Sequence record: MK327932.1
Direction: 5' to 3' (one strand)
Source of the DNA: Escherichia phage vB_EcoM_G2248
DNA: 64,000 nt
Shown here: positions 13,437 to 39,919 of the stretch, in pieces
How positions within the stretch are numbered: position 1 is the stretch's first letter
How the letters are laid out: the number at the start of each line of letters is the position of its first letter
The notes under the pieces: model-generated
Told to the model about the DNA's origin: nothing
The model's database searches: none
Seen by the model: the letters and a program-made list of their open reading frames with translations, nothing else
Made by a program: the position numbers and the translations under genes

Positions 13437-13469
13437 AAAACGGGGCTAGTATAAAACTAGTCCCCGTTT
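13437..13469 (-). terminator. hairpin between alt and the Alt-like paralogue
   Basis: AAAACGGGGCTAGT-ATAAAA-CTAGTCCCCGTTT; U-rich run on the minus transcript. Confidence 0.5.
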
Positions 13470-13493
13470 GAGTCAACCATTATTTCTTAAAAA

Positions 13494-15545
13494 TTACATT
13501 TTAAATTTATCTGGCATTGCGTCTACAGATACCAGATCAGCGATAAGCTGACGTAGAGTTGCCTTATCTGCTTTCTTACGTTCGGTTTTAGCTTCGCTAA
13601 TGAAGCTGGAGAAAGACAGGTCAGAAGCAGGTTTAACAACACCTTCACGGATGAATGCATCACCGTCCGCGATCATCTCGCCAGATTCTTGTAATGCTGC
13701 CAGTTCATTTTTGTTCATAATATGTGCCTCAATGTAATAAGTTTCTTGTGAATCCGTCGATGCCGTAGCACGAGTTACCGTATCAAAGGATAACACAACA
13801 CCGCGAGGAAGTAAAATCTCGCATTCTTTGTAAGCAAATGCTTTGTTACCTACTGGCAAGACAGGGATGTTTTCCGCGCCAGCAATGGAGAAAGCAACAT
13901 TAGCGCCACCTTCACCGCGAGAGCCAGCCATAGAATCAACACCAGCAACGGCACTAGCCACGTTTGCATTCCAGCCGCCAAAAATGTTAGGTGCAAGGGA
14001 AGTGCTCACATAGTTTTTAAAGTAAAACGCTTTTTGCTTACGTGCAGTTTCCCACATTTGCGACCGGAAGTCCATACCACGATACAGAATAGTACCCGGA
14101 TCAAGTTTAACGCCATAGTTGGAGAAGGCATTATCCAGTGCATCGCACATCTTGACCAATTCTTCTGGATCTGAGATGCCTTCAAACTCTTCCAGCTTAC
14201 GATCAGTTAGGAAGTTGTTCATATTGATGTATGCTGCATCGGCATATTCGCTCAACACAAAACCTTCCGCGCCTGGCAGATCAAGATCAATATCTGCCAT
14301 CATTTCACCCATGTTACTAGCAATTGCTTCAAACATACCGGAAGCAACATTACGCAGGGCATCGGTTTTAATCTGGGTGATATGACTACGCAGCATTTCA
14401 GCTTTTACATCTGCTGGCATAGACTGGTCTACTCGATCCATTGCCAGGGCGGTGATCTTGTTTTCGAATACTTCCTCGCTCATGATTTCTTTTAAGCGTT
14501 TGATTGATGCTGCGATAACTTCCGCAGACAACGGATCATATTGATCCTGAACTTTTACCAGTTCGCTTACTGCGTATTTTGCATCGGCTTCGCTTTCAAA
14601 AATAGTACGCATGAAACCATAGCGAGTGATAATATCACTTGTCCAGTCATTCAGAGAACGGGCGGTTGAACGTTCTAAGGCTTGACGATCAATCAGAGTA
14701 TTAAACTGTTTCTTAGGTTCGGCTTCGGTGATATCTTCTTCCGGTTTAAGATTAATTTTTTCTGGATGATTCACATAGTCGCTGTTATAGGTCGCTTGAG
14801 TTTTCAGCATTTCTTCTTTAGTCAAACGAGATTTAGCCGCTACGCGTTGTTCCGCTTCCGCGTTTCGTTCTTCTTCTGACACCAGACTAGCCGCATACGC
14901 CTCATCTTTAGTCAGAGATTCACCAGTAGCCTTAGATACCCAGCGATCACCTAAATCACTTTCTACTTTAGTGAACAAGGAATCATCAAGTTTAATCCCT
15001 TTAATCTTATCAATCGCCATACCGCGACGCTTGACAACAACTAAAGCGATCTTTTTGCTGGTCATTACTTCCTGCTGGAATACTTCAAACTTCGGTGTAC
15101 GACGCACCAAACGCTCTATAACGCGCTTAACCAGTTCGGTCTTACCTTTCATGCGGGATACGTTAAAACGGAACATAACAGCGTCTAATTGCGCTTTACG
15201 GGCTGTTTCCATAACCACATCAAAAGCACTTGCCATAACTGCAATCGGGTTATCGCCTAGACCATTTTTAAGCTGTACAATACGACCGCTTTTGTTCATT
15301 TCGCACAGTACAACATGTGCGGTCTTGTCACCCATACGAATGATTTTAGGTGTTTTGTTGGTGAAGTTACAAAGACGGACAATCACATCTTTATCGCGTG
15401 TCTGTACTGCAAAAAGCTGTTTAGGATTCTGCTTAGGCTTTAAGCACTGTACCGGAGCAATACTGCCAAAGTTTTCTTCCTCTTCCGTCAACAGCCATTT
15501 CTCGAAAGATTCAATCATTAGATCGTCGATTTCTAAGTTAAACAT
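13494..15545 (-). CDS. alt: Alt ADP-ribosyltransferase (packaged, modifies host RNA polymerase in T4)
   Basis: 683 aa (T4 Alt ~682); R-S-ExE catalytic motifs; position after gene 54 as in T4. Confidence 0.85.
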   Translation of the reverse strand: MFNLEIDDLMIESFEKWLLTEEEENFGSIAPVQCLKPKQNPKQLFAVQTRDKDVIVRLCNFTNKTPKIIRMGDKTAHVVLCEMNKSGRIVQLKNGLGDNPIAVMASAFDVVMETARKAQLDAVMFRFNVSRMKGKTELVKRVIERLVRRTPKFEVFQQEVMTSKKIALVVVKRRGMAIDKIKGIKLDDSLFTKVESDLGDRWVSKATGESLTKDEAYAASLVSEEERNAEAEQRVAAKSRLTKEEMLKTQATYNSDYVNHPEKINLKPEEDITEAEPKKQFNTLIDRQALERSTARSLNDWTSDIITRYGFMRTIFESEADAKYAVSELVKVQDQYDPLSAEVIAASIKRLKEIMSEEVFENKITALAMDRVDQSMPADVKAEMLRSHITQIKTDALRNVASGMFEAIASNMGEMMADIDLDLPGAEGFVLSEYADAAYINMNNFLTDRKLEEFEGISDPEELVKMCDALDNAFSNYGVKLDPGTILYRGMDFRSQMWETARKQKAFYFKNYVSTSLAPNIFGGWNANVASAVAGVDSMAGSRGEGGANVAFSIAGAENIPVLPVGNKAFAYKECEILLPRGVVLSFDTVTRATASTDSQETYYIEAHIMNKNELAALQESGEMIADGDAFIREGVVKPASDLSFSSFISEAKTERKKADKATLRQLIADLVSVDAMPDKFKM

Positions 15546-15586
15546 TTTATATCCTCTAGTTGATAACCTATAAACCTATATTTATG

Positions 15587-15614
15587 AAAACGGGGCTTAA
15601 CGCCCCCTTTTATT
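15587..15614 (-). terminator. rho-independent terminator closing the early gene array upstream of alt
   Basis: Minus strand reads GGGGGCG-UUAA-GCCCCG followed by UUUUCAU. Confidence 0.55.
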
Positions 15615-15825
15615 ATAATGCACCAGCAAGCAATTGCTCTAAGGTGTATCCTGAATAGTCTTTTTCAATCAGGGTATATTTTCCTACTCGTTTAATCCAG
15701 CCACGCATTTCAACGTATTCTGCGTAGTTGATGGTACGAGTTGTTCCATCTTCTAGCAAAGCAGTACCGATTTCGTTAATGCGGTCATAAGTTACGTCGG
15801 TAATGATGATTTCGATGTTAGCCAT
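15613..15825 (-). CDS. hypothetical early protein
   Basis: 70-aa ORF behind a promoter cassette (-35 TTGACA at 15885-15890 on minus strand). Confidence 0.5.
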   Translation of the reverse strand: MANIEIIITDVTYDRINEIGTALLEDGTTRTINYAEYVEMRGWIKRVGKYTLIEKDYSGYTLEQLLAGAL

Positions 15826-15896
15826 TTGATACTCCTTAGTAGTTCGTTTCGGTATGGGTGTATTATGATATACACCCTCTGTTATGTCAACAACTT

Positions 15897-16076
15897 TTAG
15901 AACATTTTTGAAATTAATTCTGCTTTGATTTCGCAGAGAACATCTAAAGATTTCTCGTCACCCGCTTTTGCTGCTTCTGCTTGCATTTTTGAAATGGCTT
16001 CAATCTCAGTGCAATTATAAGCCGCTTGAACTTTAGCGATTGCGATGATTGCCGATTCGATGGTTAAGTGTTTCAT
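15897..16076 (-). CDS. hypothetical small helical protein (59 aa, not in ORF track)
   Basis: Manual translation MKHLTIESAIIAIAKVQAAY...; preceded by conserved GGAGAATCAAAC leader and promoter cassette. Confidence 0.45.
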   Translation of the reverse strand: MKHLTIESAIIAIAKVQAAYNCTEIEAISKMQAEAAKAGDEKSLDVLCEIKAELISKMF

Positions 16077-16108
16077 GTTTGATTCTCCTTTCGTTTCGGT
16101 ATGTGTGC

Positions 16109-16137
16109 ATTATAGGGGATCGGTGACCCCCTGTCAA
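16109..16137 (-). promoter_or_regulatory. sigma70-type early promoter cassette (example)
   Basis: Minus strand TTGACA (16132-16137), 17-nt palindromic spacer GGGGGTCACCGATCCCC, TATAAT (16109-16114), then conserved leader with GGAGAA RBS. Confidence 0.7.
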
Positions 16138-16144
16138 CAACTTT

Positions 16145-16663
16145 TTAGTTATTTTTTAATTGTTCATCTTGCAATAATGCAATCACATGCTGGCGATGTT
16201 CTTCCGATTGAGGCACACCGAAAAAGTTTGTTTTGTAGAAATACTCTAATCGGTCTTCTCGTGTGCTCTCTTCCATCATGATCGCGGGTAGTCCGAGATT
16301 TCGGAAACGTCGCTTTTCTGCTGGCGTAAAATCACTGTAATACAACATAGAATCATCATTACCAGCAATGCTAAACTCATCATTCATGAAGGAGAATATT
16401 GCGTTTAAACGCTGTTTACCGTCCACGATTTCGATCTCATAGCGAGAGCCATCATCAATCTTAGCCATTGCGATAGCACCAACCGGAAAATCATTAATCA
16501 GGTTTTCGATAAACATACGTTTGTTTTCGGTGTCCCATACCAAAGGACGCTGATAATCTGGGTTCATGTTGATATATCCATCTTCTAACCACGCCTCATA
16601 AACAGAGATGACAAAGTTTTTAGTATTGGTATAGTAACGGCGTTTAGGCGTTAAACGGTTCAT
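16145..16663 (-). CDS. DUF262 / ParB-like domain protein (GmrSD N-terminal-domain-like)
   Basis: Motifs DYQRPLVWD and IVDGKQRL typical of DUF262; start moved to ATG at 16663 (MNRLTPK, RBS AGGAGA), 172 aa. Confidence 0.6.
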   Translation of the reverse strand: MNRLTPKRRYYTNTKNFVISVYEAWLEDGYINMNPDYQRPLVWDTENKRMFIENLINDFPVGAIAMAKIDDGSRYEIEIVDGKQRLNAIFSFMNDEFSIAGNDDSMLYYSDFTPAEKRRFRNLGLPAIMMEESTREDRLEYFYKTNFFGVPQSEEHRQHVIALLQDEQLKNN

Positions 16664-16664
16664 G

Positions 16665-16997
16665 TTATAGTCTCCTGAATGGATCATCACGTAAATCAAT
16701 ATCTTTTAAGAACTCATCCCATGAATGGCGGATATTGTTCTTAATTCTCCAGATAAGCGCAGGGATTGAACGCTCTCCCATCTGGAAGTATGGATCATAT
16801 GATCCGTATGCCCAATATGCTACTACAATTCCACAATCAGCGCAATAGTATTCTATTTCACTTGCTGGCGACCAAAGTCCATCAATATGATCGGTGATCT
16901 TGCTTTCGATGTTATGGCTATGACAATCAGGGCAACGGATGCAATGACCTTGTTTATCGTAATTTGACGTTAGCGAATACTTAAACAATCTCATCAT
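16665..16997 (-). CDS. zinc-ribbon protein
   Basis: CxxC...CxxC (CIRCPDCHSH ... YCADCG); translationally coupled to both neighbours. Confidence 0.55.
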   Translation of the reverse strand: MMRLFKYSLTSNYDKQGHCIRCPDCHSHNIESKITDHIDGLWSPASEIEYYCADCGIVVAYWAYGSYDPYFQMGERSIPALIWRIKNNIRHSWDEFLKDIDLRDDPFRRL

Positions 16998-17710
16998 AGA
17001 TCCTTATTTGCTTCAAATACTGCCTTTGCGAATCCTCGCGGGGTAAGTGACCTGATAGTCTTTGTTTTCGTTCCTTTCCCGCCTAGCTTAGAATGCTGTT
17101 TACTGTACCCTTTATTAATCTGCAAAGGTTTCTTTTCTGGCATTATAAAGCCTTGTCCGGTCCATAAGCAAGTCTTTTTCGGGTACATATCACGGGCGGC
17201 AATATACTCAGGAAAAGTAGGATGTTTATCATCTTCCGGCAAATAACCGCCATATTCCCACGGATGGAACATATAATCAGGCTTACGCCACATGCTAGAG
17301 ATAACGCTTACAGGATTCTCTATCATGTAGGGAACTCCTAGCCATTCACCCAAATAAGCGGTTATTTTAGCTGCCCTTACATCATGAACTTGAATCAATG
17401 GTCCTTGCTCTCGTTTCTTTCGTTCAAAGTGTGCAGCGCCACTAACAGCTAAATTGGTGCACGGTGGGAATGCAAAGATAATATCCGGTTTCCCCCATTC
17501 AAGGTCCATTGCTCTTTCCAGCCAGTTCAAATCAATCCATGTGTTTACATAGGTAATGTTTGGATGTTCAAATCGGGTATTATACTTTTTGTATGTACCG
17601 TGGTCGCCATCGTCAGCATTAAAGCAGATCACCTTATGACCTGCTTTAGCCCATTCTAACCCCATTATCCCCGATCCGTCAAAGTTGCAGAATATTAATT
17701 TTTGTTTCAC
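16994..17710 (-). CDS. minimal C5-cytosine methyltransferase-like protein (no obvious target-recognition domain)
   Basis: Motif I-like FDGSGIMG, motif IV-like FPPCTNLAVSG (Pro-Cys), motif VI-like IENPV, C-terminal RSLTPRG resembling the LTPRE motif; only 238 aa. Confidence 0.55.
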   Translation of the reverse strand: MKQKLIFCNFDGSGIMGLEWAKAGHKVICFNADDGDHGTYKKYNTRFEHPNITYVNTWIDLNWLERAMDLEWGKPDIIFAFPPCTNLAVSGAAHFERKKREQGPLIQVHDVRAAKITAYLGEWLGVPYMIENPVSVISSMWRKPDYMFHPWEYGGYLPEDDKHPTFPEYIAARDMYPKKTCLWTGQGFIMPEKKPLQINKGYSKQHSKLGGKGTKTKTIRSLTPRGFAKAVFEANKDL

Positions 17711-17958
17711 GCTGCCCCCATTGGTTTGATAGTAACAGAATCTAAAAGACCTTTGTTAGCCAGTTCGCGGCAAGTTTTCAGATCCGCAACTTCCCAGCCA
17801 GCCGCAATCAGGTTGTCAATGAGGCTGTTAGCAACTTCTTCGCTCATGAAAGAGCACTGTTTGCCGATGGTGTAGCGTACACGCTGTAATTTCAGTTTAC
17901 GGAAGCCTTTAACGTTCAGGTCTTTAGCGATTTTCTTTGCGGTTTCGATGTTAGCCAT
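17707..17958 (-). CDS. hypothetical early protein
   Basis: 83 aa, promoter cassette upstream (TTGACA at 18022-18027 minus). Confidence 0.5.
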   Translation of the reverse strand: MANIETAKKIAKDLNVKGFRKLKLQRVRYTIGKQCSFMSEEVANSLIDNLIAAGWEVADLKTCRELANKGLLDSVTIKPMGAA

Positions 17959-18041
17959 TGTTTGATTCTCCTAAGTGGTATCTCGTCTTGATGGTTGCAT
18001 TGTAGGGGAGTTATCCTCCCCTGTCAACACTTTTTATAAAA

Positions 18042-18209
18042 TTATTTGTTAATTTCTGGTGCGTTGCTAGGATAGTAACCTTCTTTAACTCCGAGGTATT
18101 TCGCAACCATCCCTACAATCTTCTGTGCTACTACAATGTCAAATTTCAGATAATCTTCGCCGTGGGTTTCAATGATATATGCTTCACATGCTGCTTTAGT
18201 CTCGAACAT
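18042..18209 (-). CDS. hypothetical 55-aa protein, copy A of a duplicated gene (not in ORF track)
   Basis: Manual translation MFETKAACEAYIIETHGEDYLKFDIVVAQKIVGMVAKYLGVKEGYYPSNAPEINK; near-identical to 21322..21489. Confidence 0.6.
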   Translation of the reverse strand: MFETKAACEAYIIETHGEDYLKFDIVVAQKIVGMVAKYLGVKEGYYPSNAPEINK

Positions 18210-18285
18210 TTTGATTCTCCTATTTCGTTTCGGTATGTGTGTAGTATAGGGGATCTCCCGATCCCCGTCAACAACTTTTTTAAAA

Positions 18286-18567
18286 TTATTCGTGATTAGT
18301 TTCGATGTTGTGCATTTTGCACCAGTTCAGCCAATCACCCAGATCCTGATAGTTAATGCTTTTATCTGCTGCCATCGTTTTTGTCTTGATACCCATATGT
18401 GCGTTATGAGTAAGCATTTTTACAGTGAACTCGATTTTATCGCCTTTAGCTTTAACATCAACCAGTTTGGTCCACTGGCTACCAGCGCCGCGAATGTTCA
18501 TGCCAACGATGTTTCCGATGTATGCTTCTTTGTTTTTCATGATTTCGGTTGCTTTGATGAATTTCAT
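18286..18567 (-). CDS. hypothetical early protein
   Basis: 93 aa, own promoter cassette. Confidence 0.5.
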   Translation of the reverse strand: MKFIKATEIMKNKEAYIGNIVGMNIRGAGSQWTKLVDVKAKGDKIEFTVKMLTHNAHMGIKTKTMAADKSINYQDLGDWLNWCKMHNIETNHE

Positions 18568-18636
18568 TTTTGATTCTCCAATTCGTTTCGGTATGGGTGT
18601 ATTATGCTATGTTCTTACTTTGGTGTCAACAACTTT

Positions 18637-18906
18637 TTAGATATTTTCAGAAATAAATTTTAAAACTTGACGTAAATGTTTCTCATCTTTGATAGTCGCC
18701 GGAAGTTCTTCTTTTACTTCTTGTGCAAGATAGATATTTCCGTTCCAAGTGAAAGATCCGTCTTCGTTTACGCGATAGCTGAACATCCACTCGCAATCAT
18801 TTTCGATTTCATATACACACAGAAGGGTGTAATCGTTAAAGCTATTGATTTCAAGGTCGAAGCCGTGACGTTTTGCAAAGTTGGTAGTGGTTTTAGTCAG
18901 TACCAT
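18637..18906 (-). CDS. hypothetical early protein
   Basis: 89 aa, own promoter cassette. Confidence 0.5.
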   Translation of the reverse strand: MVLTKTTTNFAKRHGFDLEINSFNDYTLLCVYEIENDCEWMFSYRVNEDGSFTWNGNIYLAQEVKEELPATIKDEKHLRQVLKFISENI

Positions 18907-19032
18907 TGTTTGATTCTCCTAAGTGGTATCTCGTTTCGATGGTTGTATTATGCTATACACAGGATCTGGTGTCAATACCTTTTTTAAAAATTTTGGCAAT
19001 AAAAAAGCCGACACTAAGGTCGGCTAATAAAA

Positions 19033-19341
19033 TCAACGAGATAGATAATCGTTTTGCGCGATCTGGTCGGCGTATGCTGGTGTTACGTCAATCGCCAGCA
19101 CTTTAACGCGTGCTTTCTTGCGACCTGGGTTTTCTCGTAACCAGTGCTCATGACCGTGAACATTTTTATACTGCGATGCTTCTTCGAAGGTACGGATCGG
19201 ACCTGGGTAATCAGCGTAAAGGATCTCTAGATCTTCGGTGATGTAAAAATATACATCGTAATTGCTGTTCTCTAGCTTAAGCAGAGACTTTCGGAACATT
19301 GGGAGATTTTCGCGGGTAAATTCAAAGATATTATCTTTCAT
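19033..19341 (-). CDS. gp30.3-like family protein (paralogue 1)
   Basis: Conserved core HGHEHW...VKVLAIDV shared with five other ORFs in this region. Confidence 0.55.
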   Translation of the reverse strand: MKDNIFEFTRENLPMFRKSLLKLENSNYDVYFYITEDLEILYADYPGPIRTFEEASQYKNVHGHEHWLRENPGRKKARVKVLAIDVTPAYADQIAQNDYLSR

Positions 19342-19397
19342 AGTATTATCCTCAATAGTTGGATGAAAAGGGGGGGGGGGGCTTAATGCCCCGTATA

Positions 19398-19685
19398 TTA
19401 AAACAGTCCTTCCTGTACACCGTAGTAGAGTTCATCGCTGATAATTTCATTAATGCGACGGTGTGCATATTCCTGATTTGCGAAGTTGTCAGCAAGTTCT
19501 ACTTTAGTTTCGCCGTCATGAGTCCATTTAGTGATAACTTTACCATCTGCAAATTTGAAGTTGAACTCTTTAGCTACCGCATCGCGTACCAGACGTGCAA
19601 ACTTATTGTTGCGGATTGCATTGTCGGTTTCGTGTGCAGCGTGAGCGAATTTGTTAACTTTCAGAGTGATAGTAATGTATGCCAT
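19398..19685 (-). CDS. hypothetical early protein (AKEFN family, paralogue of 22949..23260)
   Basis: Shares VRDAVAKEFNFK segment with VRKALAKEFNTK in 22949..23260. Confidence 0.5.
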   Translation of the reverse strand: MAYITITLKVNKFAHAAHETDNAIRNNKFARLVRDAVAKEFNFKFADGKVITKWTHDGETKVELADNFANQEYAHRRINEIISDELYYGVQEGLF

Positions 19686-19766
19686 AATTTGATTCTCCTA
19701 GTTAGAAAGTGTATCTCGTTTCGATGGGGATATTATGCTATATCCCCGATCCGGTGTCAACACTTT

Positions 19767-20045
19767 TTATAAAATAATTTTTTGATATTTTTCTATGATG
19801 TTCGTGTAAGTCACATCAACCGCTAGCACCGTTGCTTCGAATCCACCGTTTAGCCAATGGCTATGATCATGATCGTGAAAGAAACCTAGACCAGTACGAA
19901 GACCTTCTTTATATTCTGCGCGTACATTCAGTTTGTCGTCGATAAACAGATAAAACCATGAATTTTTACTAGGATTGATGATACAACCTTTCAGATTAGG
20001 GAGAATATCACGACTAAGAATAAACTTATCACCTACTTTGAACAT
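19767..20045 (-). CDS. gp30.3-like family protein (paralogue 2)
   Basis: HDHDHSHW...TVLAVDV; start moved to internal ATG (MFKVGDKF, RBS GAGGA) to remove overlap with neighbour. Confidence 0.55.
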   Translation of the reverse strand: MFKVGDKFILSRDILPNLKGCIINPSKNSWFYLFIDDKLNVRAEYKEGLRTGLGFFHDHDHSHWLNGGFEATVLAVDVTYTNIIEKYQKIIL

Positions 20046-20059
20046 AATATTTTCCTCAC

Positions 20060-20368
20060 TTATAAAGTTTGACCGTTGTTTTTCGCGTAATGCTGAATGC
20101 GTGCTTGATCTGCTTCCGCTGGTGATAGATTCCATGCGATCACTACAACTTCTGGCGCATCATGATCATTATCACTTACCCAATGATTATGATTCATACA
20201 ATTGTTTGCTATCGCGTGAGCAAATGATCTCATTACCGGAGACGTATAATCATAGTAACGGATTTTCAGATTTTCATCAACGTACAAGTAGATCGTATAC
20301 GGCTTATATTCAGTAACCAGTAACAGACAGTTACGCAATTCTGGGAAAATCTTTTTAGTTAATTTCAT
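20060..20368 (-). CDS. gp30.3-like family protein (paralogue 3)
   Basis: NHNHW...VVVIAWN; start moved to MKLTKKIF (RBS GAGGA). Confidence 0.55.
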   Translation of the reverse strand: MKLTKKIFPELRNCLLLVTEYKPYTIYLYVDENLKIRYYDYTSPVMRSFAHAIANNCMNHNHWVSDNDHDAPEVVVIAWNLSPAEADQARIQHYAKNNGQTL

Positions 20369-20369
20369 T

Positions 20370-20588
20370 TTATAATCCTCGGTCGCGGCTATAGTACACG
20401 GTACGCCATACAATTTCATGTTTCGTGTCGCTCCAGCACACGATCTCATTTACTCTTAAATCTTTGTTATCAACAAAAGATGAACATTGTGACGCTTCTT
20501 TCATCATTTTATCTGCTGTTTTCTCATCAAATACAGCACAGATTTCTTTATACACTCGATAATCTTTGAATTGACTCTGGATACCCAT
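20370..20588 (-). CDS. hypothetical protein, tandem paralogue of 20591..20800
   Basis: Both contain FKDYxxYxxIxxVxxxxxAxKMMxxASxCxSF; track start is GTG, ATG at 20588 preferred. Confidence 0.45.
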   Translation of the reverse strand: MGIQSQFKDYRVYKEICAVFDEKTADKMMKEASQCSSFVDNKDLRVNEIVCWSDTKHEIVWRTVYYSRDRGL

Positions 20589-20590
20589 AA

Positions 20591-20800
20591 TTAACACCAC
20601 TCAAGAGTTTTTGAAAACACATCTATCCATTGTTGAGTATATGCGGTTTCTTTCCATGAGACAATACCAGTAGAATAATGGTTTTTGTTTCCAGAAAAGG
20701 ACGGGCATTTTGATGCATCTTCCATCATCTTTTCGGCGAACTCTGGTTCGTATACTCGCAAGATCTGTTGATATGCTTTATAATCTTTAAATTTGCTCAT
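20591..20800 (-). CDS. hypothetical protein, tandem paralogue of 20370..20588
   Basis: 69 aa, ATG start. Confidence 0.5.
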   Translation of the reverse strand: MSKFKDYKAYQQILRVYEPEFAEKMMEDASKCPSFSGNKNHYSTGIVSWKETAYTQQWIDVFSKTLEWC

Positions 20801-21065
20801 AATCGTTAACTACCTTATCAGCTTCTTTTATTGTTTTTACATCAACTGCGATAACCCGTAAAGGTTCGTCATGGTTCCACCAATGATCGTGAATATCGGC
20901 TTGTGATTTATCACCAAAGGAATCACGAATATCATTTTTACATTTATAGCTAATGTGACCGTCATAGTCAACATAAAGGTAATTATCGAAAATCGGCGTT
21001 TTTAAGATCATACCGAAAAATCTTTCTTTGTGTGTCTTATCCAGCGTTGCAGTAATTCGCATCAT
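20787..21065 (-). CDS. gp30.3-like family protein (paralogue 4)
   Basis: HDHWWNHDEPLRVIAVDV. Confidence 0.55.
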   Translation of the reverse strand: MMRITATLDKTHKERFFGMILKTPIFDNYLYVDYDGHISYKCKNDIRDSFGDKSQADIHDHWWNHDEPLRVIAVDVKTIKEADKVVNDYEQI

Positions 21066-21077
21066 AATATATTCCTC

Positions 21078-21257
21078 TTAGAAAGGGATGGTCATTTCTT
21101 GAGCTTGTACATTCTCGTTAGGATTAAACTTCATCCAACCGATATTGTCTACCAGCATATGTACATTTTTATCATATCCTACTTGAGTAGTCAACACTAA
21201 ATGTGCTTTACCTTCAACGATGATTTCCATGTACTTCTGAACTTCGATAGCTTTCAT
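21078..21257 (-). CDS. hypothetical small protein (59 aa, not in ORF track)
   Basis: Manual translation MKAIEVQKYMEIIVEGKAHLVL...; conserved leader/RBS upstream. Confidence 0.45.
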   Translation of the reverse strand: MKAIEVQKYMEIIVEGKAHLVLTTQVGYDKNVHMLVDNIGWMKFNPNENVQAQEMTIPF

Positions 21258-21321
21258 TTTGATTCTCCGTTTGTTGTCTTGATGGGAGTATCTTACTACT
21301 CCCTTTAATCATTGTCAACGA

Positions 21322-21489
21322 TTATTTGTTAATTTCCGGTGCGTTGCTTGGATAGTAGCCTTCTTTAACACCCAGATATTTTGCAACCATTCCGGTGATC
21401 TTCTGTGCTACTACGATATCGAATTTCAGGTAGTCTTCACCGTGGTTTGCTACAATGTATGCTTCGCATTCTGCTTTAGTCTGGAACAT
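21322..21489 (-). CDS. hypothetical 55-aa protein, copy B of duplicated gene
   Basis: MFQTKAECEAYIVANHGEDYLKFDIVVAQKITGMVAKYLGVKEGYYPSNAPEINK; track ORF begins 12 codons earlier inside the promoter leader. Confidence 0.6.
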   Translation of the reverse strand: MFQTKAECEAYIVANHGEDYLKFDIVVAQKITGMVAKYLGVKEGYYPSNAPEINK

Positions 21490-21523
21490 TTTTGATTCTC
21501 CTATATCTCGTTGGTATGTGTGC

Positions 21524-21553
21524 ATTATAGGGGATCTCCCGATCCCCTGTCAA
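21524..21553 (-). promoter_or_regulatory. sigma70-type early promoter cassette (example)
   Basis: Minus strand TTGACA-GGGGATCGGGAGATCCCC-TATAAT, then leader ...GGAGAATCAAAA-ATG. Confidence 0.7.
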
Positions 21554-21562
21554 CAACTTTTT

Positions 21563-21898
21563 TTATTCTTTATACGCATATTTCATAAATTTGTCTGCTA
21601 CTTCATCGGCATGTTCCGATTCTACGCCGGATTCGAGAACAATAGCAAGGTCGGTTTCGTCGTGACCTTCGTACCAGTGATTATGTGTGTCGTTTGAATC
21701 AATATAGAATTTATCACCTTCGTAAGTTCGAGCAAATACATCTAAATTCTCGTCGATGTAAAAGATCCAATCTTCATAAAGAATAACCGTATTAGCCAGA
21801 TTTTTATTGCCTTCAACGAAAGGTTCGACTACAAACAAATTAGTATTTTCCTCAAAATTATACAGCTTCGTAAACTTCCCAATGTTCAGCGCCAACAC
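21563..21898 (-). CDS. gp30.3-like family protein (paralogue 5; start uncertain, no in-frame ATG)
   Basis: THNHWYEGHDETDLAIVLES core; track start is GTG and overlaps the upstream gene. Confidence 0.45.
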   Translation of the reverse strand: MLALNIGKFTKLYNFEENTNLFVVEPFVEGNKNLANTVILYEDWIFYIDENLDVFARTYEGDKFYIDSNDTHNHWYEGHDETDLAIVLESGVESEHADEVADKFMKYAYKE

Positions 21899-22049
21899 GC
21901 TTAACGAAAAGGTTTTCTTTGATGTTATTCATAAACGTCTGGATGGATTTAATGCGGTTGGAAGGTTTCCAGTCTTTGTTGGCATTGCGGCGATACATAA
22001 TAATATTACCAGTTCGCTTATATTCAGCAACCATTTTAAGACCACACAT
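21858..22049 (-). CDS. hypothetical small basic protein
   Basis: 63 aa, ATG with strong RBS GAGGA. Confidence 0.5.
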   Translation of the reverse strand: MCGLKMVAEYKRTGNIIMYRRNANKDWKPSNRIKSIQTFMNNIKENLFVKRVGAEHWEVYEAV

Positions 22050-22105
22050 AATATTATCCTCAATTTGTGGGAGAGTATTACCCTCCCGATTATTGTTATA
22101 CTACA

Positions 22106-22408
22106 TTACGCAAAATGGCGTGTCAATGCTTCTTTTGCTGTTCCGCTAAGATTCTCGATCTCTCCTGGCATAACATCAACCGCCAGAACTTCTACAACAT
22201 CCTCTGATCCTAACCAGTGAGTATGACCTTTGTAGAACTTGATATCCCATTTATCGCTATCGCTAGCCCACCACACATCACCGTCTATAAAGTTGATGTA
22301 AAGCACACTACGACACATTGAATTAGTTACTTTCAATACTGCGCCTTTCATCTCTTCCACGGTATGGTCTTCCATTTTGAAGACCTCGCCTACCTTAACT
22401 TTTGCCAT
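22106..22408 (-). CDS. gp30.3-like family protein (paralogue 6)
   Basis: GHTHWLGSEDVVEVLAVDV; start moved to MAKVKVGEV so the gene abuts the upstream stop. Confidence 0.55.
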   Translation of the reverse strand: MAKVKVGEVFKMEDHTVEEMKGAVLKVTNSMCRSVLYINFIDGDVWWASDSDKWDIKFYKGHTHWLGSEDVVEVLAVDVMPGEIENLSGTAKEALTRHFA

Positions 22409-22409
22409 G

Positions 22410-22676
22410 TTACATGCTCCGAATATGTTTAGATGCATCTTCCAGTTCGTCGATAGTGACACTGTGAGCCAGTAAGTGTACTGGTTGTGGTTCTTCACCT
22501 TCCATAGTATTGATCAGATGACCGTTTCCTGGGTGGAATGTATCGTTGCCGTTCCAAATAGCATACACATCATCTTCTGTTACGTAGATAATAAGTCCAA
22601 TCGGTGATTCTGGTAATTGAAAAATTTTACCCACTGCATCTTTGCGATTGTTTACGATATCTTTTACTGTCTTCAT
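22410..22676 (-). CDS. hypothetical early protein
   Basis: 88 aa; C-terminal PVHLLAHSVTIDELEDA loosely resembles the 30.3-like core. Confidence 0.5.
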   Translation of the reverse strand: MKTVKDIVNNRKDAVGKIFQLPESPIGLIIYVTEDDVYAIWNGNDTFHPGNGHLINTMEGEEPQPVHLLAHSVTIDELEDASKHIRSM

Positions 22677-22695
22677 TTAGTTACCTCTCGTTAAA

Positions 22696-22875
22696 TTACA
22701 TCACAATCACGCCAGCCGTTGAAAGTTGATGTTTCAACTGAGCATTTTCTGCTACTGTCAAATCAATGATTTCTTGTGACGCTGCAATCATATAGCCATT
22801 GGTGATATTGTTTTGCATCAGTTCAATGGTTTCTTCGTTGTAGCGGATTTTAGCGATGATTTCGTTGAAGTTCAT
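22696..22875 (-). CDS. hypothetical small helical protein
   Basis: Start moved to MNFNEIIAK after the GGAGAATCAAAC leader; 59 aa. Confidence 0.5.
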   Translation of the reverse strand: MNFNEIIAKIRYNEETIELMQNNITNGYMIAASQEIIDLTVAENAQLKHQLSTAGVIVM

Positions 22876-22948
22876 GTTTGATTCTCCTAGTTCGTTTCGG
22901 TATGTGTGTATTATAGGGGAGTTTAACCTCACCTGTCAACAACTTTTT

Positions 22949-23260
22949 TTAAAGTTTTTCCATGATAACGGTCATAATTACATCTTCTGCGCGAGCGGTC
23001 AGATTATCAGCGTCAGTATGTGGGCGGTTGGTTGTTACAGAGATAACACCGTTGCGCACTGGTTTGATATTGATATCAAGATGATCCGCGAAACGTTCGC
23101 CAGTTACAGAATGAATTTTGGTGTTAAATTCTTTTGCCAGTGCCTTGCGAACTTCACGAATCAGGATAGCGTTTTTCAGTTGGTTCTCCGCGCTCATGGT
23201 CTTCTGGGTGTTCATGGTTCCGTCGAAGTCAATCATTGGCAGCGTTACGATGTATTTCAT
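22949..23260 (-). CDS. hypothetical early protein (AKEFN family)
   Basis: Start moved to MKYIVTLP after the conserved leader; 103 aa; paralogue of 19398..19685. Confidence 0.5.
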   Translation of the reverse strand: MKYIVTLPMIDFDGTMNTQKTMSAENQLKNAILIREVRKALAKEFNTKIHSVTGERFADHLDINIKPVRNGVISVTTNRPHTDADNLTARAEDVIMTVIMEKL

Positions 23261-23289
23261 TTTTGATTCTCCGTTTAAGAAAGTGTGTT

Positions 23290-23369
23290 TCGTTTTGATG
23301 TGTGTAGTATAGGGGATACGTGATCCCCTTCGTTTTGATGTGTGTAGTATAGGGGATACGTGATCCCCT
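23290..23369. repeat. perfect tandem duplication (2 x 40 bp) of a promoter core
   Basis: TCGTTTTGATGTGTGTAGTATAGGGGATACGTGATCCCCT occurs twice back to back (23290-23329, 23330-23369). Confidence 0.85.
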
Positions 23370-23387
23370 GTCAACAACTTTTTTGAA

Positions 23388-23732
23388 TTATTTTTTCATG
23401 AGCTTAATGGCTTCTTCCATAGCCAGCACATTTCGATAGTTAGGGTATCGTGTTAGATCGTCATACATTCGCTTAAGGGTGGAAACTTCCTCAAACTCTG
23501 GGTTTTCTAGATATAGTTGAACAAATTGTTTCTCTACCATCTCGGCTTTTAGCTTGTCTGCTTGTTCCTGTTCATATGATTTCGTTGGACCCAACACCAA
23601 CAAAATGATAAAGGTGATCAACGGGCTAATGATCAATGATAGGATAACATAACCGATAACGCTACGGTTTAAACGGCTTGCGTACATGCCTACCAGGAAA
23701 ACAAAAAGGATATAGATAAACAGAAAGAACAT
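23388..23732 (-). CDS. small membrane protein (two predicted TM helices)
   Basis: Hydrophobic N-terminus MFFLFIYILFVFLVGMY ... ILSLIISPLITFIILLVLG. Confidence 0.5.
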   Translation of the reverse strand: MFFLFIYILFVFLVGMYASRLNRSVIGYVILSLIISPLITFIILLVLGPTKSYEQEQADKLKAEMVEKQFVQLYLENPEFEEVSTLKRMYDDLTRYPNYRNVLAMEEAIKLMKK

Positions 23733-23739
23733 ATAATGG

Positions 23740-24213
23740 TTACTCCTTATTTTCGCGCTCGTACTTTTCGAAATAAAATTCTACTGGCTGGTCATGAATT
23801 GACAGCAAGCCAAAGCGTTTAGCCGCTCGCAATCCCATATTGCGCTGAATGTACTTCTGGAAGTTCTCGCGTATACACTTACGCCAGTATTCTAAGCCCA
23901 TACAGCTTTTATAAAGATTGCATTGCACACACGCCGGATTCATGTTATCAAGTATATCATGTTCCGGTTTATGCATTCCTACAACCTTATACTTCCACGA
24001 TCCATCATCATTACGGGCAATTCGTCCATTTTCATCATAGACTACCTTTGAGCGTCGCAATACTGGTTTGATGTGGTCTGCGTGCCAGCGATCCCCTAGT
24101 TCCTCGCCACAATAGGCACAACGTCCACCATATTTCATTTTCAGGATCTGGCGTTGCTCTTTCTTTGACAATTTTTTAGGTTTAGGGGCTTTCGCCCCTT
24201 CATTATCACACAT
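23740..24213 (-). CDS. HNH endonuclease-like protein
   Basis: CAYCGEEL...HADHIKP...N...CVQCN arrangement (CxxC, HxxH, second CxxC). Confidence 0.6.
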   Translation of the reverse strand: MCDNEGAKAPKPKKLSKKEQRQILKMKYGGRCAYCGEELGDRWHADHIKPVLRRSKVVYDENGRIARNDDGSWKYKVVGMHKPEHDILDNMNPACVQCNLYKSCMGLEYWRKCIRENFQKYIQRNMGLRAAKRFGLLSIHDQPVEFYFEKYERENKE

Positions 24214-25708
24214 CGAATACCTCTTTTACTGTATTTGCAGTGGTCTTGTCGTAGCGAATACGTTTGATGATCGGGAGAAATAAAGAGAACTCAGGTTCAT
24301 CTTCTTTACGTGATTTGCTGCGAATGTACCCGTTGCATGTCATCTCAATGACTTTTCCAATCAGGTTATGACGGTCAGCCCATAACATTTCTCGGTCGAG
24401 TTCATTTCGACGATCGAACGGAATTACACGTTCAATACCATCATCACCTTTTTCGGTTGTGGTGTCGGTTAATCCCGATCCGGTGTTAGTCATCATTCGT
24501 CCGCACGCACTACGGACAGTAAAACCGCCTACCTTATTAGGATCTTTACTATGCGGATATACATCAACAATTTCAGCGTCGAAGTCAATCACTTCTTTAA
24601 ATTTAACCTGGTCTTTACTGCGACGATCTTCAAATACACCATGTAAATTTTTAAGGATAATACCTTCTAAGCCCATGTTTACATAGCGATGATATACTTC
24701 GCGAGCTTCATCTATATTGTTAACTACAGTGTTTTCGATTATCTGAACACGAGGATCGTTAAGTTCTTCAACAATCTGTTTTAGTTCTTCGAATCGATCT
24801 TTATATTGCTTCGTTGCTTTCTCGTTTCCGTAATACACATCACGGTCGATAACATCCCAGACAGTATAAACAATACATTGGGCTTCTTCTTTTGGAATAG
24901 TTCCTTTAAGTGATTTGTTGAGGATACCATTTCCGGTCTGACGATCTGCAACAACGGATTCTTTTACTGCTTCCGCTACTGGCGTTAATGGCATTTCCTC
25001 TTCTTCAAATATCCATGACAGAGTACCATCATAAACGCTCTCAACGAAGTTCTGCGCTGGTGTTTGCGAAAGGGTAGGCATATATACCAATTCGCCATCT
25101 AGAACAATTCCACGGCCTCGTAGACGCTCTAAAACCGCAAACAAATCATCAAGTCCTTGATAGGTATTACCTGAGCGGGTATAGATTGCTAATGTTTCCC
25201 CGTCAATATCAGCCATACCACGAGCGCCATCGCTTTTAAGTTGTGCATACGCCGGATACTTGATATTAGCAATAGTCTTATCAGAACATGACGATGCAAG
25301 GTGACACGGTTGCTGGGGGATCAGTTTCTTCCATACCTTGTTTGCAGTGGTAGCGGAACAACCACATTCCAGATCACGATTCAGGACCATCATTGCAACT
25401 TTAGCATCATCTTCTGACAAGCAAGTCAGAGTATCGGTAACTAGCTGTAATGCTGCGTTACCAGTTACTTGACGCGTGGCAAGTTTATTTTTAAAGACCT
25501 GTAATGCACCGGATAAAGACAATACAGACGAATAACGCGATGGTTTATCGTATTTCTTTACGCCAAACGTAACCTGTTTGCAATATGCCAGATAAAAGCA
25601 TTCTTTCAGTGTTTCATTGCTTGCAGATTCTTTCAGGATCTTTTCTTTCAGCGATGTTTTGTCTGTTGCTGCAAGCTGGTTAATGATATTAAGAATTGAC
25701 ATTTTCAC
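24206..25708 (-). CDS. 30: ATP-dependent DNA ligase
   Basis: 500 aa; colinear with T4 gp30 as recalled (KADGAR adenylation motif, IDGELV, EGIILKN, C-terminal DKTxANT). Confidence 0.9.
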   Translation of the reverse strand: MKMSILNIINQLAATDKTSLKEKILKESASNETLKECFYLAYCKQVTFGVKKYDKPSRYSSVLSLSGALQVFKNKLATRQVTGNAALQLVTDTLTCLSEDDAKVAMMVLNRDLECGCSATTANKVWKKLIPQQPCHLASSCSDKTIANIKYPAYAQLKSDGARGMADIDGETLAIYTRSGNTYQGLDDLFAVLERLRGRGIVLDGELVYMPTLSQTPAQNFVESVYDGTLSWIFEEEEMPLTPVAEAVKESVVADRQTGNGILNKSLKGTIPKEEAQCIVYTVWDVIDRDVYYGNEKATKQYKDRFEELKQIVEELNDPRVQIIENTVVNNIDEAREVYHRYVNMGLEGIILKNLHGVFEDRRSKDQVKFKEVIDFDAEIVDVYPHSKDPNKVGGFTVRSACGRMMTNTGSGLTDTTTEKGDDGIERVIPFDRRNELDREMLWADRHNLIGKVIEMTCNGYIRSKSRKEDEPEFSLFLPIIKRIRYDKTTANTVKEVFDV

Positions 25709-31119: not shown

Positions 31120-31518
31120 TTAACTTTCCAGAATATCGCGAGCTTCGTTACGCTCCTTGATGATTTTCAGGACAAATTCCAGTTTTTCTTTGTTCAGTGT
31201 TCCGTTTTCCATTGCTTCTTTGACGGTAAACACTCCGCCACCTTGCCCGTATACAGTGACAGTGATTTCACCTAACATCGTGGTGTGAAAACCGCCAATT
31301 TTCGGTGATTCGAAAGAAACAATTACCTCGCGGACAGTATTACCGTCGTTGATTTCTGAGAGGGTAATGTCGTTTTTGTAGGCGGTTGCTTTAACCATAC
31401 GGATCAGCATAGTCTGATCTGGGGAGATGGTCATTTTGTCCATTGCATGTTGCAATGCAGCGTAACCGAAAACTTTAACGAAGTCCAGAACGTCTTTGCG
31501 AGTTTGAAATTTAATCAT
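31120..31518 (-). CDS. hypothetical protein
   Basis: 132 aa behind a promoter cassette. Confidence 0.5.
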   Translation of the reverse strand: MIKFQTRKDVLDFVKVFGYAALQHAMDKMTISPDQTMLIRMVKATAYKNDITLSEINDGNTVREVIVSFESPKIGGFHTTMLGEITVTVYGQGGGVFTVKEAMENGTLNKEKLEFVLKIIKERNEARDILES

Positions 31519-31588
31519 CTTGATACTCCTTAGTTGTTTTGGTATGGGAGTATCTTACTACTCCCGTGATATGCTGTCAACTGCTTTT

Positions 31589-31738
31589 TTATGCAACCGC
31601 AAACATCAACATTTGAACATTCTTGGCTGTCTGGCTTTCAAAGTTCTGACATTCTTTGATAATGTCCTCTACTTTCTCGCCGGAGATCTCCGCGTAAGTT
31701 TCGATTGCCATTTTCAGTACCGCGTCAAAGTTGTTCAT
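31589..31738 (-). CDS. hypothetical small helical protein
   Basis: Start moved to MNNFDAVLK after conserved leader; 49 aa. Confidence 0.45.
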   Translation of the reverse strand: MNNFDAVLKMAIETYAEISGEKVEDIIKECQNFESQTAKNVQMLMFAVA

Positions 31739-31806
31739 TTGATTCTCCTTAAAGTGTATTTCGTTTCGATGGGGGTATATTACTACCCCCCGTTTCATGC
31801 TGTCAA

Positions 31807-32025
31807 CTACTTTTTAATGACAAGTTCGAATTTTGCTACCTTGCGTCCTCGTTTATTGAAAGCAACCCACGGACGATTTTCAATGTAGAACAATTCTTCG
31901 CCAATAATGAATACTGGCTGATTGTAAAGGCGACCCATCAGGTCACGCTGGCGAATGGTAGTAGATTCGTATACTTCGCCTACTACAAAGTGCTTGCTGA
32001 TAGAGTCGGTGCAAGTAAATTTCAT
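31807..32025 (-). CDS. hypothetical protein
   Basis: 72 aa, own promoter cassette. Confidence 0.5.
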   Translation of the reverse strand: MKFTCTDSISKHFVVGEVYESTTIRQRDLMGRLYNQPVFIIGEELFYIENRPWVAFNKRGRKVAKFELVIKK

Positions 32026-32094
32026 TTTGATTCTCCTTTGTTTCGTTTCGATGGGGGTATATTACTACCCCCGTTATTCAGTGTCAACTACTTT

Positions 32095-32313
32095 TTACTT
32101 GTTGTATTCATTCCACCATTGGGTTAGCTTATCAATTATTTTTGTGTTTCTATCCAACTTATCCCACCGTTTTCGAGGGTTTATCAACCGTAATAGGTAA
32201 GGTGTACTTGTTAAGTGAACTCGGTCAATGTAGTGATTGATGTACTGTTTTTCGATTCTAAGTTTCATCTTTTTACGATGAAAATATGCAATGACTTGTT
32301 CTTCTGTTTCCAT
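32095..32313 (-). CDS. hypothetical basic protein
   Basis: Start moved to METEEQVIAY (RBS GGAGG); 72 aa. Confidence 0.45.
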   Translation of the reverse strand: METEEQVIAYFHRKKMKLRIEKQYINHYIDRVHLTSTPYLLRLINPRKRWDKLDRNTKIIDKLTQWWNEYNK

Positions 32314-32411
32314 ATGTTCCTCCGTTTCGATGTGCATTATGCTATACCCCGATCCGATTGTCAACACCCAATAACAAAAAAGTCGCCACGATGGGCGACT
32401 TTGAACAAACA

Positions 32412-34401: not shown

Positions 34402-34568
34402 TATCCGACAACCTCAAAACATTTATCATCAGGAAGAATCGCCCATTCTACGCCATATTCATCCTCAACGTAGTAGCAAGCCCCATCATGTCGAGCATCA
34501 TATACATCACCGACAACAAAGCTATCAGCTAGCTCAAAATCTACAGCAACACATTTTAATTTGGTCAT
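34401..34568 (-). CDS. hypothetical small protein
   Basis: Start moved to MTKLKCVAVDF (RBS GAGGA); 55 aa. Confidence 0.45.
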   Translation of the reverse strand: MTKLKCVAVDFELADSFVVGDVYDARHDGACYYVEDEYGVEWAILPDDKCFEVVG

Positions 34569-34636
34569 AATAAAATCCTCACTTGTTTTTGATGGTTGTA
34601 TTATAGCGGGGATTTCTCCCCGCGTCAACACTTATT

Positions 34637-39087: not shown

Positions 39088-39417
39088 TCAGATCAGTTTA
39101 AAGAAGTTTTCGTTTACATTTTCTTCGGTGATTGCTGTCTTAAATTCTTGACCGTTATCCGGTGTGATGAAATAACGGTCAGAATAATCACGAAAACGTT
39201 TTAAGTGAGATACCCCAACATTAACACCATTTTCCCAGAAACGAAAGGTAATCATTTTTGGTTCATATCGATAGTCGCTGGTTAACACAGTACCATCACC
39301 GCGACGGGCTTCATAAACCGTAATACATTCACGATTAGCGGCTTTAATACATTCTTCAATAGTGCCACATGAGATAATACTTACTGTTTCATCTACGATT
39401 TGTTCTACAGTCCACAT
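39088..39417 (-). CDS. hypothetical protein
   Basis: 109 aa. Confidence 0.45.
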   Translation of the reverse strand: MWTVEQIVDETVSIISCGTIEECIKAANRECITVYEARRGDGTVLTSDYRYEPKMITFRFWENGVNVGVSHLKRFRDYSDRYFITPDNGQEFKTAITEENVNENFFKLI

Positions 39418-39470
39418 AATATAATCCTCTTTGTTTCGATGTTTGTATTATACATCATCTGTGTTTGACG

Positions 39471-39800
39471 TCAACCTTTTTGTTCCATGAAAAGCGGTGC
39501 TGTTTCTTCTTTCAGTTTAATAACTAGCGCGGAAACTTCATCAAGAAAATCTTTTTCCATATGAGCAAGCATTGATTTAGAATCTTTGATGACTTTCAAA
39601 GAATATTCACTTAGATTTCCTTTTCCTAACAATAATGCGGGATACACACTATGTGGGATCTCGATTTCGTGATATTCGCTCATAGTATAATATTTGTGAA
39701 TTTTTAAATCTATATTTCTTCGTTGTACGTCTACATCAGCAATGACATACAGAAGTTCGATTTTATCACTTTTCTGGGAAAGGGTAGCATTCAAAAACAT
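39471..39800 (-). CDS. hypothetical protein
   Basis: 109 aa, own promoter cassette. Confidence 0.45.
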   Translation of the reverse strand: MFLNATLSQKSDKIELLYVIADVDVQRRNIDLKIHKYYTMSEYHEIEIPHSVYPALLLGKGNLSEYSLKVIKDSKSMLAHMEKDFLDEVSALVIKLKEETAPLFMEQKG

Positions 39801-39919
39801 TGTTAATCCTCCGTTGTTTCGATGAGTTCATTATACATTACCTCGCCAACATGTCAACACCTTTTTCATAAATTTTTAGGCAATAAAAAAGCCTCCCCGA
39901 AGGGAGGCTGTAAAATTCA

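Follow-up and report, generated by a model that had tools for sequence, protein, structure and literature searches.

The 64,000-nucleotide stretch of Escherichia phage vB_EcoM_G2248 analyzed here (record MK327932.1; hereafter, the window) carries a repeated cassette in which a promoter, an inverted repeat, and a translation leader stand ahead of small early genes. We conclude with considerable confidence that these cassettes are PeSLs (promoter-early stem-loops), elements that unite a promoter, an insulator, and a recombination substrate. The element is real and functional, and it is not new. PeSLs were described in phages RB49 and phi1 (Arbiol, Comeau, Kutateladze, Adamia, and Krisch 2010, Genome Biol Evol 2:140; PMC2839356), and the repeated unit is that published element, found again where it was first described.

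A profile hidden Markov model (HMM) was built from 20 seed copies and run on both strands of the window. It returned 22 full cassettes and one partial copy (23328-23253), every one on the minus strand, with E values from 2e-18 to 1.5e-3. No plus-strand match in the window was better than E = 2.9. A first-pass annotation, made from the letters alone, had reported a repeated promoter-leader unit, and a -35 hexamer is indeed present at all 22 of the coordinates that it listed. In all 22 copies, the cassette sits on the coding strand of early genes. Its parts follow in the order A-rich upstream tract, TTGACA, spacer, -10, discriminator, A, A-rich leader, GGAGAATCAAA, and ATG. The upstream tract has the consensus aaAaaattttaAAAAAGtTG, with an A-tract at about -44 to -40, and the stop codon of the upstream gene lies 5 to 25 nucleotides (nt) 5' of the -35. 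The -35 is exactly TTGACA in 17 copies, and the spacer is 17 nt in 17 copies, 18 nt in 3, and 16 nt in 2. The -10 variants (TATAAT, CATAAT, TATACT, TAAGAT, TAATAT, TACAAT, and TATTAT) are 0 to 2 bases off TATAAT. A C-rich discriminator of six bases follows (gcacac or acaccc, for example), and in 21 of the 22 copies an A stands 7 nt past the -10, where sigma-70 promoters usually start. The leader is 23 to 40 nt long (79 nt in the duplicated copy at 23374), and A makes up 50% of it and T only 15%. Next come GGAG(A/T)ATCAAA or GAGGA and the ATG, so that a GGAG/GAGG Shine-Dalgarno sequence is found in every copy. All 22 ATGs open real open reading frames (ORFs) of 49 to 252 amino acids (aa). The cassettes are paralogous to one another; their pairwise identities have a median of 59% and reach at most 78%. 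The claim that nearly every small gene is preceded by the unit was overstated, because about 24 genes share 11 cassettes in the stretch from 15613 to 23260. The cassette is the mark of each transcription unit rather than of each gene. An overlap with late promoters was considered and set aside, the -10 regions being TATAATAC or TATAATGC and not TATAAATA.

The whole region is about 95% identical to some 60 genomes of Krischvirus, the RB49-type T4-like coliphages, including RB49, Phi1, JSE, GEC-3S, and ECD7. The part from 15.8 to 23.4 kb is the alt-to-ligase hyperplastic region, collinear at 92 to 98% identity with Phi1 and with RB49 ORF185-211, a block flanked by alt and DNA ligase. In the GenBank record of GEC-3S, the matching sites are annotated as promoters, with -35 and -10 signals given. 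Other clusters of cassettes lie between denA and nrdB, after nrdA, between frd and gene 32, and at 58.7 to 59.7 kb; the last falls beyond the annotated stretch of RB49 used for comparison. We extracted 195 cassettes with 113 unique promoter cores from the homologous regions of 15 relatives. With this phage, the sample comprises 16 genomes, compared with 2 in the original PeSL paper. Ten cassette-driven ORFs that were scanned matched only PHROGs of unknown function, and none had a Pfam match. No cassette of this type was seen outside the genus in IMG/VR, searched with the methyltransferase protein and with the exact 16-nt leader: two Krischvirus contigs have cassettes, and 14 other contigs were chance matches without one. 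The family therefore appears, on these searches, to be restricted to Krischvirus. Rfam 15 gave zero matches at gathering score across the whole window.

As published, a PeSL is made up of an AT-rich upstream region and a promoter of sigma-70 consensus, together with a Gn-loop-Cn stem and the Shine-Dalgarno sequence and start codon of the next gene (PMC2839356). Five positions of the stem are described: most often it lies in the spacer or overlaps the -10, and otherwise it covers the -35, falls within the AT-rich tract, or follows the -10. Each genome has about 50 PeSLs, mostly in hyperplastic regions and ahead of ORFans (PMC2839356). The cassettes of the window have the same near-consensus sigma-70 early promoter (TTGACA-N17-TATAAT), AT-rich tract, Gn-loop-Cn stem in several placements, Shine-Dalgarno sequence with ATG, ORFans, and association with insertions and deletions (indels). 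They lie in the same genus and the same alt-to-ligase region, at positions orthologous to PeSL193/192, 206/205, and 211/210, and the copy at 23374 shares its stem with the RB49 element between ORF211 and ORF210. According to Nolan et al. 2006, the RB49 early-promoter consensus, with C-rich -3 to -1 and A-rich -40 to -44 positions, is consistent with the mapped 5' ends of early transcripts. The differences from RB49 and phi1 are of detail only: this new isolate has no ORF192 and no ORF189.1, and it has an extra 88-aa ORF and a private 40-bp duplication.

The inverted repeat had been placed in the spacer by the first-pass annotation. This is correct for 8 copies, which we call class I. In another 8 to 9 copies, class II, the stem lies over the -10; four copies have an ordinary terminator upstream instead, and two have neither. 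One divergent copy has its stem after the -10. The class I stem starts with the final A of TTGACA and finishes on the first T of the -10, at position -12. The class II stem has its 5' arm in the spacer and its 3' arm in the end of the -10 and the discriminator, and it ends at -1. Class I examples are AGGGGATC-ggga-GATCCCCT, AGGGGAG-gataa-CTCCCCT, and GCGGGGA-gaaa-TCCCCGC, and class II examples are GGGTGTAT-atcata-ATACACCC and GGGAGTA-gtaaga-TACTCCC. One example in the annotation, GGGGATCGCCGATCCCC, is a real copy (58958), although its plus-strand reading had been given as the minus-strand one. The ordinary terminators, a GC stem followed by a T-run, lie 15 to 35 nt upstream of the -35 in the copies at 18975, 32364, 39857, and 59741. 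The hairpins are well in excess of chance: their cores reached a score of at least 13 in 16 of the 22 copies and at least 18 in 13, whereas shuffled cores gave means of 1.9 and 0.1; among random 42-mers of the window, 9.7% and 1.6% reached these scores. All embedded hairpins are upstream of the predicted +1. With its last base at -12 in class I and at -1 in class II, the hairpin stays outside the cassette's own transcript. Therefore, it would act only on RNA arriving from upstream.

We suggest that the cassette combines three functions. As a promoter, it would be fired by the host RNA polymerase immediately after infection. The transcript would start at the A 7 nt past the -10 with a short leader, rich in A and predicted to fold little, that contains a GGAG Shine-Dalgarno sequence; therefore, the small ORFan behind it should be strongly expressed. 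As an insulator, the inverted repeat would be transcribed only on read-in from the upstream unit. The minimum free energy of the hairpin-bearing copies as RNA is -9 to -15 kcal/mol, and a read-in transcript folding into this hairpin would be terminated or attenuated, or would have its 3' end fixed there. Each cassette would thus be insulated from its neighbors. As a recombination substrate, a unit of about 100 bp recurs every few hundred bases in one orientation, and the very active homologous recombination of the phage would use the copies to delete, duplicate, insert, or swap the genes between them.

Parts of this scenario have been demonstrated experimentally in RB49 and phi1. A PeSL206/205 lacZ fusion gave about 13,000 Miller units, and most clones of intact PeSLs had acquired -35 or -10 mutations, which suggests that the native promoters are too strong to tolerate (PMC2839356). 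The PeSL211/210 stem-loop is reported there to cut lacZ read-through about as much as rrnB T1 does (PMC2839356). Genes that differ between RB49 and phi1 are flanked by PeSLs, and inverse PCR recovered mini-circles with junctions inside PeSLs (PMC2839356). Promoter activity, termination by one class I stem-loop, and mini-circles were shown by others in these orthologues only; class II hairpins presumably do the same job as class I. The first-pass annotation had offered three ideas for the palindrome, namely, a hairpin in read-through RNA that marks the boundary of the upstream transcript, a recombination hotspot that shuffles cassettes, and a binding site for a dimeric regulator. All three are already in print, two of them with experimental support. 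The first two were published for RB49 and phi1 (PMC2839356); the position of the hairpins upstream of +1, the mutual exclusion of hairpins and terminators, the G·T-only bias, and the enrichment of breakpoints described below agree with these two.

Comparison of the stems points to conservation of pairing. The arms belong to several unrelated families and are almost always perfectly paired around loops of 3 to 6 nt. GGGAGTA/TACTCCC and GGGGGTA/TACCCCC differ by a compensatory pair. The locus upstream of the ORF at 19398-19685 has GGGGATAT/ATATCCCC in 5 genomes and GGGTGTAT/ATACACCC in 7, and one genome has the G·T intermediate GGGGGTAT/ATATCCCC. A detection rule blind to mismatch type found 6 G·T mismatches and 1 T·C mismatch in the stems, and no A·C. 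Only the RNA of the sense strand can accommodate G·U pairs, and the G·T-only bias is suggestive of an RNA structure on the sense strand.

The best in silico argument that the embedded stems do a terminator-like job is that stems and terminators replace each other. Of 153 unique cassettes from the 16 genomes, 108 carry an embedded hairpin alone and 25 an ordinary upstream terminator alone; 5 combine the two, and 15 lack both. Four of the five with both have weak stems, and the 15 with neither represent about five loci. Embedded hairpin and ordinary terminator are mutually exclusive at a Fisher p of 9e-14, with orthologous copies that are not independent of one another. We infer from this pattern that the embedded stems, class II included, probably do the work of a terminator.

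To relate the cassettes to gene turnover, positions 15400-24400 of the window were compared with the 15 relatives, giving 16 distinct indel events with 27 breakpoints. The cassette footprints cover 15% of this region and contain 14 of the 27 breakpoints (binomial p = 8e-6). The cassette-associated breakpoints include the published ORF192 site at 18271. Some deletions run exactly from cassette to cassette (15866-16078, 18049-18210, and 15866-18210). One downstream ORF has different PeSL types ahead of it in different phages.

Several points weigh against this interpretation. Termination has been demonstrated in a reporter and for a single class I stem (PMC2839356). The embedded hairpins have no T-run and hence no U-tract: the RNA after them reads UAUAAU or AUACCG (AUACCG or AUCGAA after class II stems). 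A terminator scan of the minus strand called none of them and returned ordinary terminators only, such as the one at 19006-19025. We therefore rejected the embedded stems as textbook intrinsic (rho-independent) terminators. The asymmetry between G·T and A·C represents only about 3 to 4 independent events (one-sided p of about 0.06), and four further genomes added in search of independent G·T or A·C events provided none. Hairpin and terminator are both missing at two cassette loci, 18629 and 39474. The searchable literature yielded no transcript 3'-end data for any Krischvirus. Finally, the two commonest indels lie at gene-gene junctions without a PeSL. At 17694/17709, ORF189.1 is missing in this phage, and at 22408/22674 (22408-22674) the 88-aa ORF present here at 22410-22676 is absent from 11 of the 15 relatives compared. 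Therefore, the cassettes are not the sole route of gene turnover.

The missing U-tract is also what first speaks for another role of the hairpins, as RNA 3'-end stabilizers or processing barriers against 3'-to-5' exonucleases that would set the half-life of an mRNA rather than stop the polymerase. The hairpins stand just past the stop codon of the upstream gene, the expected spot for a protective 3' hairpin, and the G·T-only mismatches point to structure at the RNA level. However, the class I stem-loop tested in the reporter cut expression about as much as rrnB T1 (PMC2839356), and embedded hairpins and genuine intrinsic terminators replace each other and exclude each other. We regard stabilization in place of termination as possible and rather unlikely, and the two roles are compatible with each other. 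With similarly low confidence, we entertain the idea that the embedded hairpins, especially those of class II that end at -1, are not intrinsic terminators at all and are instead used by a structure-specific factor, acting either on RNA in 3'-end formation or protection or on DNA in targeted exchange of cassettes. If so, the duplication at 23289-23368 would be a natural test case, with a hairpin inside a 5' untranslated region (UTR).

A more doubtful possibility is that the inverted repeat is a DNA signal that starts recombination, with a hairpin or cruciform cut or bound by an endonuclease VII-type resolvase or by a protein that recognizes GGGG..CCCC, so that exchange is targeted. One mini-circle crossover in RB49 lies in the loop itself, and its discoverers speculated that a protein binds GGGG..CCCC (PMC2839356). 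The loop type (ggt or acc) and the -10 type (TATAAT or TATACT) occur in all four combinations, and RB49 has a chimeric stem, GGGGGTA-gtaaga-TACTCCC. However, a cruciform is symmetric and should tolerate G·T and A·C equally, whereas only G·T was seen, among few events. The other crossovers were mapped either to the AT-rich tract or to the interval from the -10 to the ATG, and short homology is enough for T4-type recombination (PMC2839356). Moreover, terminator-bearing cassettes without a strong embedded stem are also found at breakpoints, for example at 18975.

That the palindrome is the operator of a dimeric phage or host regulator, which would switch the early promoters off or on, is very unlikely. 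In its favor, a protein bound at this site within the promoter would obstruct RNA polymerase, and GGGGATC..GATCCCC is common to many copies. However, the arms are of at least four unrelated sequences (GGGGATC, GGGGAG, GGGAGTA, and GGGTGTAT), the loops of 3 to 6 nt alter the spacing of the half-sites, and the two placements differ by about 10 bp with respect to the -35 and -10. What is conserved, with compensatory changes, is pairing and not sequence, and six cassettes have no palindrome, four of these with an ordinary terminator. The idea of a dimeric regulator is not upheld by these features. Least probable of all is that the palindrome has no function and was copied along with the promoter in cassette duplication: the copies are clearly paralogous, but compensatory double changes, the use of three pairing registers (each ending before +1), the substitution of real terminators in cassettes that lack the stem, and hairpin scores far above those of shuffled copies speak against it. 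The variety of arms, the retained pairing, and the loops of 3 to 6 nt argue against both a sequence-specific dimeric operator and neutral hitchhiking.

The individual copies are all on the minus strand. The class I copies are those at 16137, 18027, 18271, 21553, 22939 (imperfect), 23374, 34628, and 58958. The first (16074 to 16157) has the spacer stem AGGGGGTC/GATCCCCT with one G·T, its -35 at 16132-16137, its +1 at 16102, and its ATG at 16076. The copy at 17956 to 18047 has AGGGGAG-gataa-CTCCCCT and heads a four-gene unit that includes a DNA methyltransferase. At 18207 to 18291, the stem-loop is GGGGATC-ggga-GATCCCC and the predicted +1 is at 18236; ORF192 is inserted here in RB49 and G2494, and JSE has a different insert. 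The copy at 21487 to 21573 has AGGGGATC-ggga-GATCCCCT, and the ORF behind it is paralogous to that behind the cassette at 18271. The imperfect copy (22873 to 22959) pairs AGGTGAG with CTCCCCT with one T·C mismatch and heads a five-gene unit. The homologue of RB49 PeSL211/210 (23258 to 23394) has AGGGGAT-cacgt-ATCCCCT. The last two lie downstream of nrdA (34566 to 34648; GCGGGGA-gaaa-TCCCCGC) and at 58896 to 58978 (AGGGGATC-ggc-GATCCCCT).

The class II copies are those at 15890, 19760, 21318, 31580, 31806, 32087, 58735, and 59239 and, weakly, 18975. In the first (15823 to 15910), the stem GGGTGTAT/ATACACCC lies around the -10 CATAAT; the -35 is at 15885-15890, the predicted +1 at 15855, and the ATG at 15825. 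The copy at 19683 to 19780 has GGGGATAT/ATATCCCC, and the orthologous locus in relatives has GGGTGTAT/ATACACCC, a compensatory change. GGGAGTA-gtaaga-TACTCCC, with the -10 TAAGAT and a predicted +1 at 21283, is found at 21255 to 21338 at the head of a six-gene unit, and GGGAGTA/TACTCCC recurs at 31516 to 31600. Two copies have GGGGGTA/TACCCCC, one with an 18-nt spacer (31736 to 31826) and one (32023 to 32107) whose RB49 orthologue is the G·T variant GGGGGTA/TACTCCC. The stems at 58670 to 58755 and 59179 to 59259 are GGAGTA/TACTCC and ATGGGAGTA/TACTCCCAT, the latter of 9 bp.

Among the copies with an ordinary upstream terminator, the one at 18904 to 19025 has its terminator at 19006-19025 (AGCCGAC..GTCGGCT, then TTTTTT), along with a weak embedded stem, TGTAT/ATACA. 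Those at 32311 to 32400 (GTCGCC..GGCGAC, then TTTTTT) and 59679 to 59790 (GCCGATC..GGTCGGC, then TTTTTT) have no embedded stem, and the terminator at 39798 to 39911 is CCTCCC-ttcg-GGGAGG followed by CTTTTTT. At 18565 to 18649, a PeSL-type promoter and leader stand without a stem-loop: there is a 3' arm, ATACACCC, but the 5' arm is missing. The weak copy at 39415 to 39494 (E = 1.5e-3) also has no stem, and its -35, TTGACG, shares bases with the stop codon of the ORF before it. Two divergent minus-strand promoters that the first-pass annotation had not listed fit the looser published definition of a PeSL. At 13449 to 13489, TTGACT-17-TATACT has the stem GGGG(A)CTAGT/ACTAGCCCC over the -10 and then GTTTTCTG, and the GEC-3S equivalent is an annotated promoter. 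At 22051 to 22126, TTGACA-17-TAGTAT has the stem GGGAG..CTCCC 3' of the -10, which is the "downstream" placement of the literature.

The PeSL211/210 homologue contains a 40-bp tandem duplication on the minus strand, GGGGATCACGTATCCCCTATACTACACACATCAAAACGAA twice, at 23329-23368 and 23289-23328. A second copy of the stem-loop now lies within the 79-nt 5' UTR of the ORF at 22949-23260. The duplication was in none of 58 matching phage records; the best of the matches listed all place the 146-nt query on only about 100 to 106 nt of their own sequence. The duplication reflects either unequal exchange in the recent past or an artifact of assembly. At 57590-57625 on the minus strand, an AT-rich tract and GTTGTTGAC are joined directly to the ribosome-binding site GTGAGGATTATATTATG, with spacer, -10, and leader gone. 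This collapsed cassette looks like a deletion relic of a PeSL. The paralogous ORFs at 18042-18209 and 21322-21489 are 84% identical in DNA, and the class I PeSLs ahead of them have the identical stem-loop GGGGATCGGGAGATCCCC. A second pair of paralogous ORFs, at 19398-19685 and 22949-23260, both matching phrog_7474, stands behind PeSLs of different classes.

Other observations concern the surroundings of the cassettes. Within the DNA methyltransferase gene (16994-17710), the segment at 17160-17335 shares about 80% DNA identity with methyltransferase genes from Salmonella phages that are unrelated and about 48 kb in size (NBSal001, F115, and vB_GS156), a similarity that suggests horizontal exchange of the gene. 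At 19375-19386, the terminator hairpin GGGGCATTAAGCCCC is followed by a C12 run before TTTT, where relatives have C4-C6; the run could be homopolymer slippage or a sequencing error. A second translation-initiation motif, GAGGAWWWTAYTATG, has 9 copies on the minus strand (19353, 20057, 21077, 22061, 27595, 34580, 39429, 57603, and 58684) and 0 on the plus strand. Five of these are ahead of genes without an adjacent cassette, those at 34580, 39429, and 58684 are in cassette leaders, and that at 57603 is in the collapsed cassette. GATC occurs at 22.7 per kb in the cassette spacers versus 5.6 per kb window-wide, an enrichment of about four times that arises because the GGGGATC arm recurs. A reading of the spacers as Dam/GATC signals was therefore set aside.

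Composites of promoter and stem-loop are also known from the T4/PST and KVP40/nt-1 pairs of phages, which have PeSLs, and from nt-1, which has PmSLs (Comeau, Arbiol, and Krisch 2014, PMC4122927). These share the location in hyperplastic regions and the link to differences in gene content. However, they are analogous rather than homologous: the promoters are TTTACW..TAYWAT and TTGYVH..TAWWAT, the stems are AGnA-loop-TCnT and A3-4G3-loop-C3T3-4, and some lie on MotA-type middle promoters (PMC4122927). The rho-independent terminators of E. coli are likewise GC-rich hairpins just past a gene, and in the cassettes they interchange with the embedded hairpins; unlike them, the embedded hairpins have no U-tract and are nested within the next promoter. 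Single small genes with their own expression signals, gained and lost as units, are a feature shared with integron gene cassettes and with morons, the latter reportedly treated by Hendrix and colleagues in 2000. In contrast to these systems, the cassettes have no integrase or attC-type site, and their mobility is attributed to homologous exchange between copies of a repeated regulatory sequence.

Few concrete mechanisms have been proposed by which large lytic phages could gain, lose, and shuffle their many small accessory genes without harming the neighboring ones, and PeSLs are among them. The array in this new Krischvirus isolate is no new kind of element, and it demonstrates that such regulatory architecture can be detected from raw sequence. 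Our comparison of 16 genomes adds support for selection on the stem as an RNA structure and the finding that embedded stems and ordinary terminators replace each other. It also adds the two main hairpin placements, the enrichment of breakpoints in cassettes, and the observation that the embedded stems have no U-tract, where termination is known for one stem.

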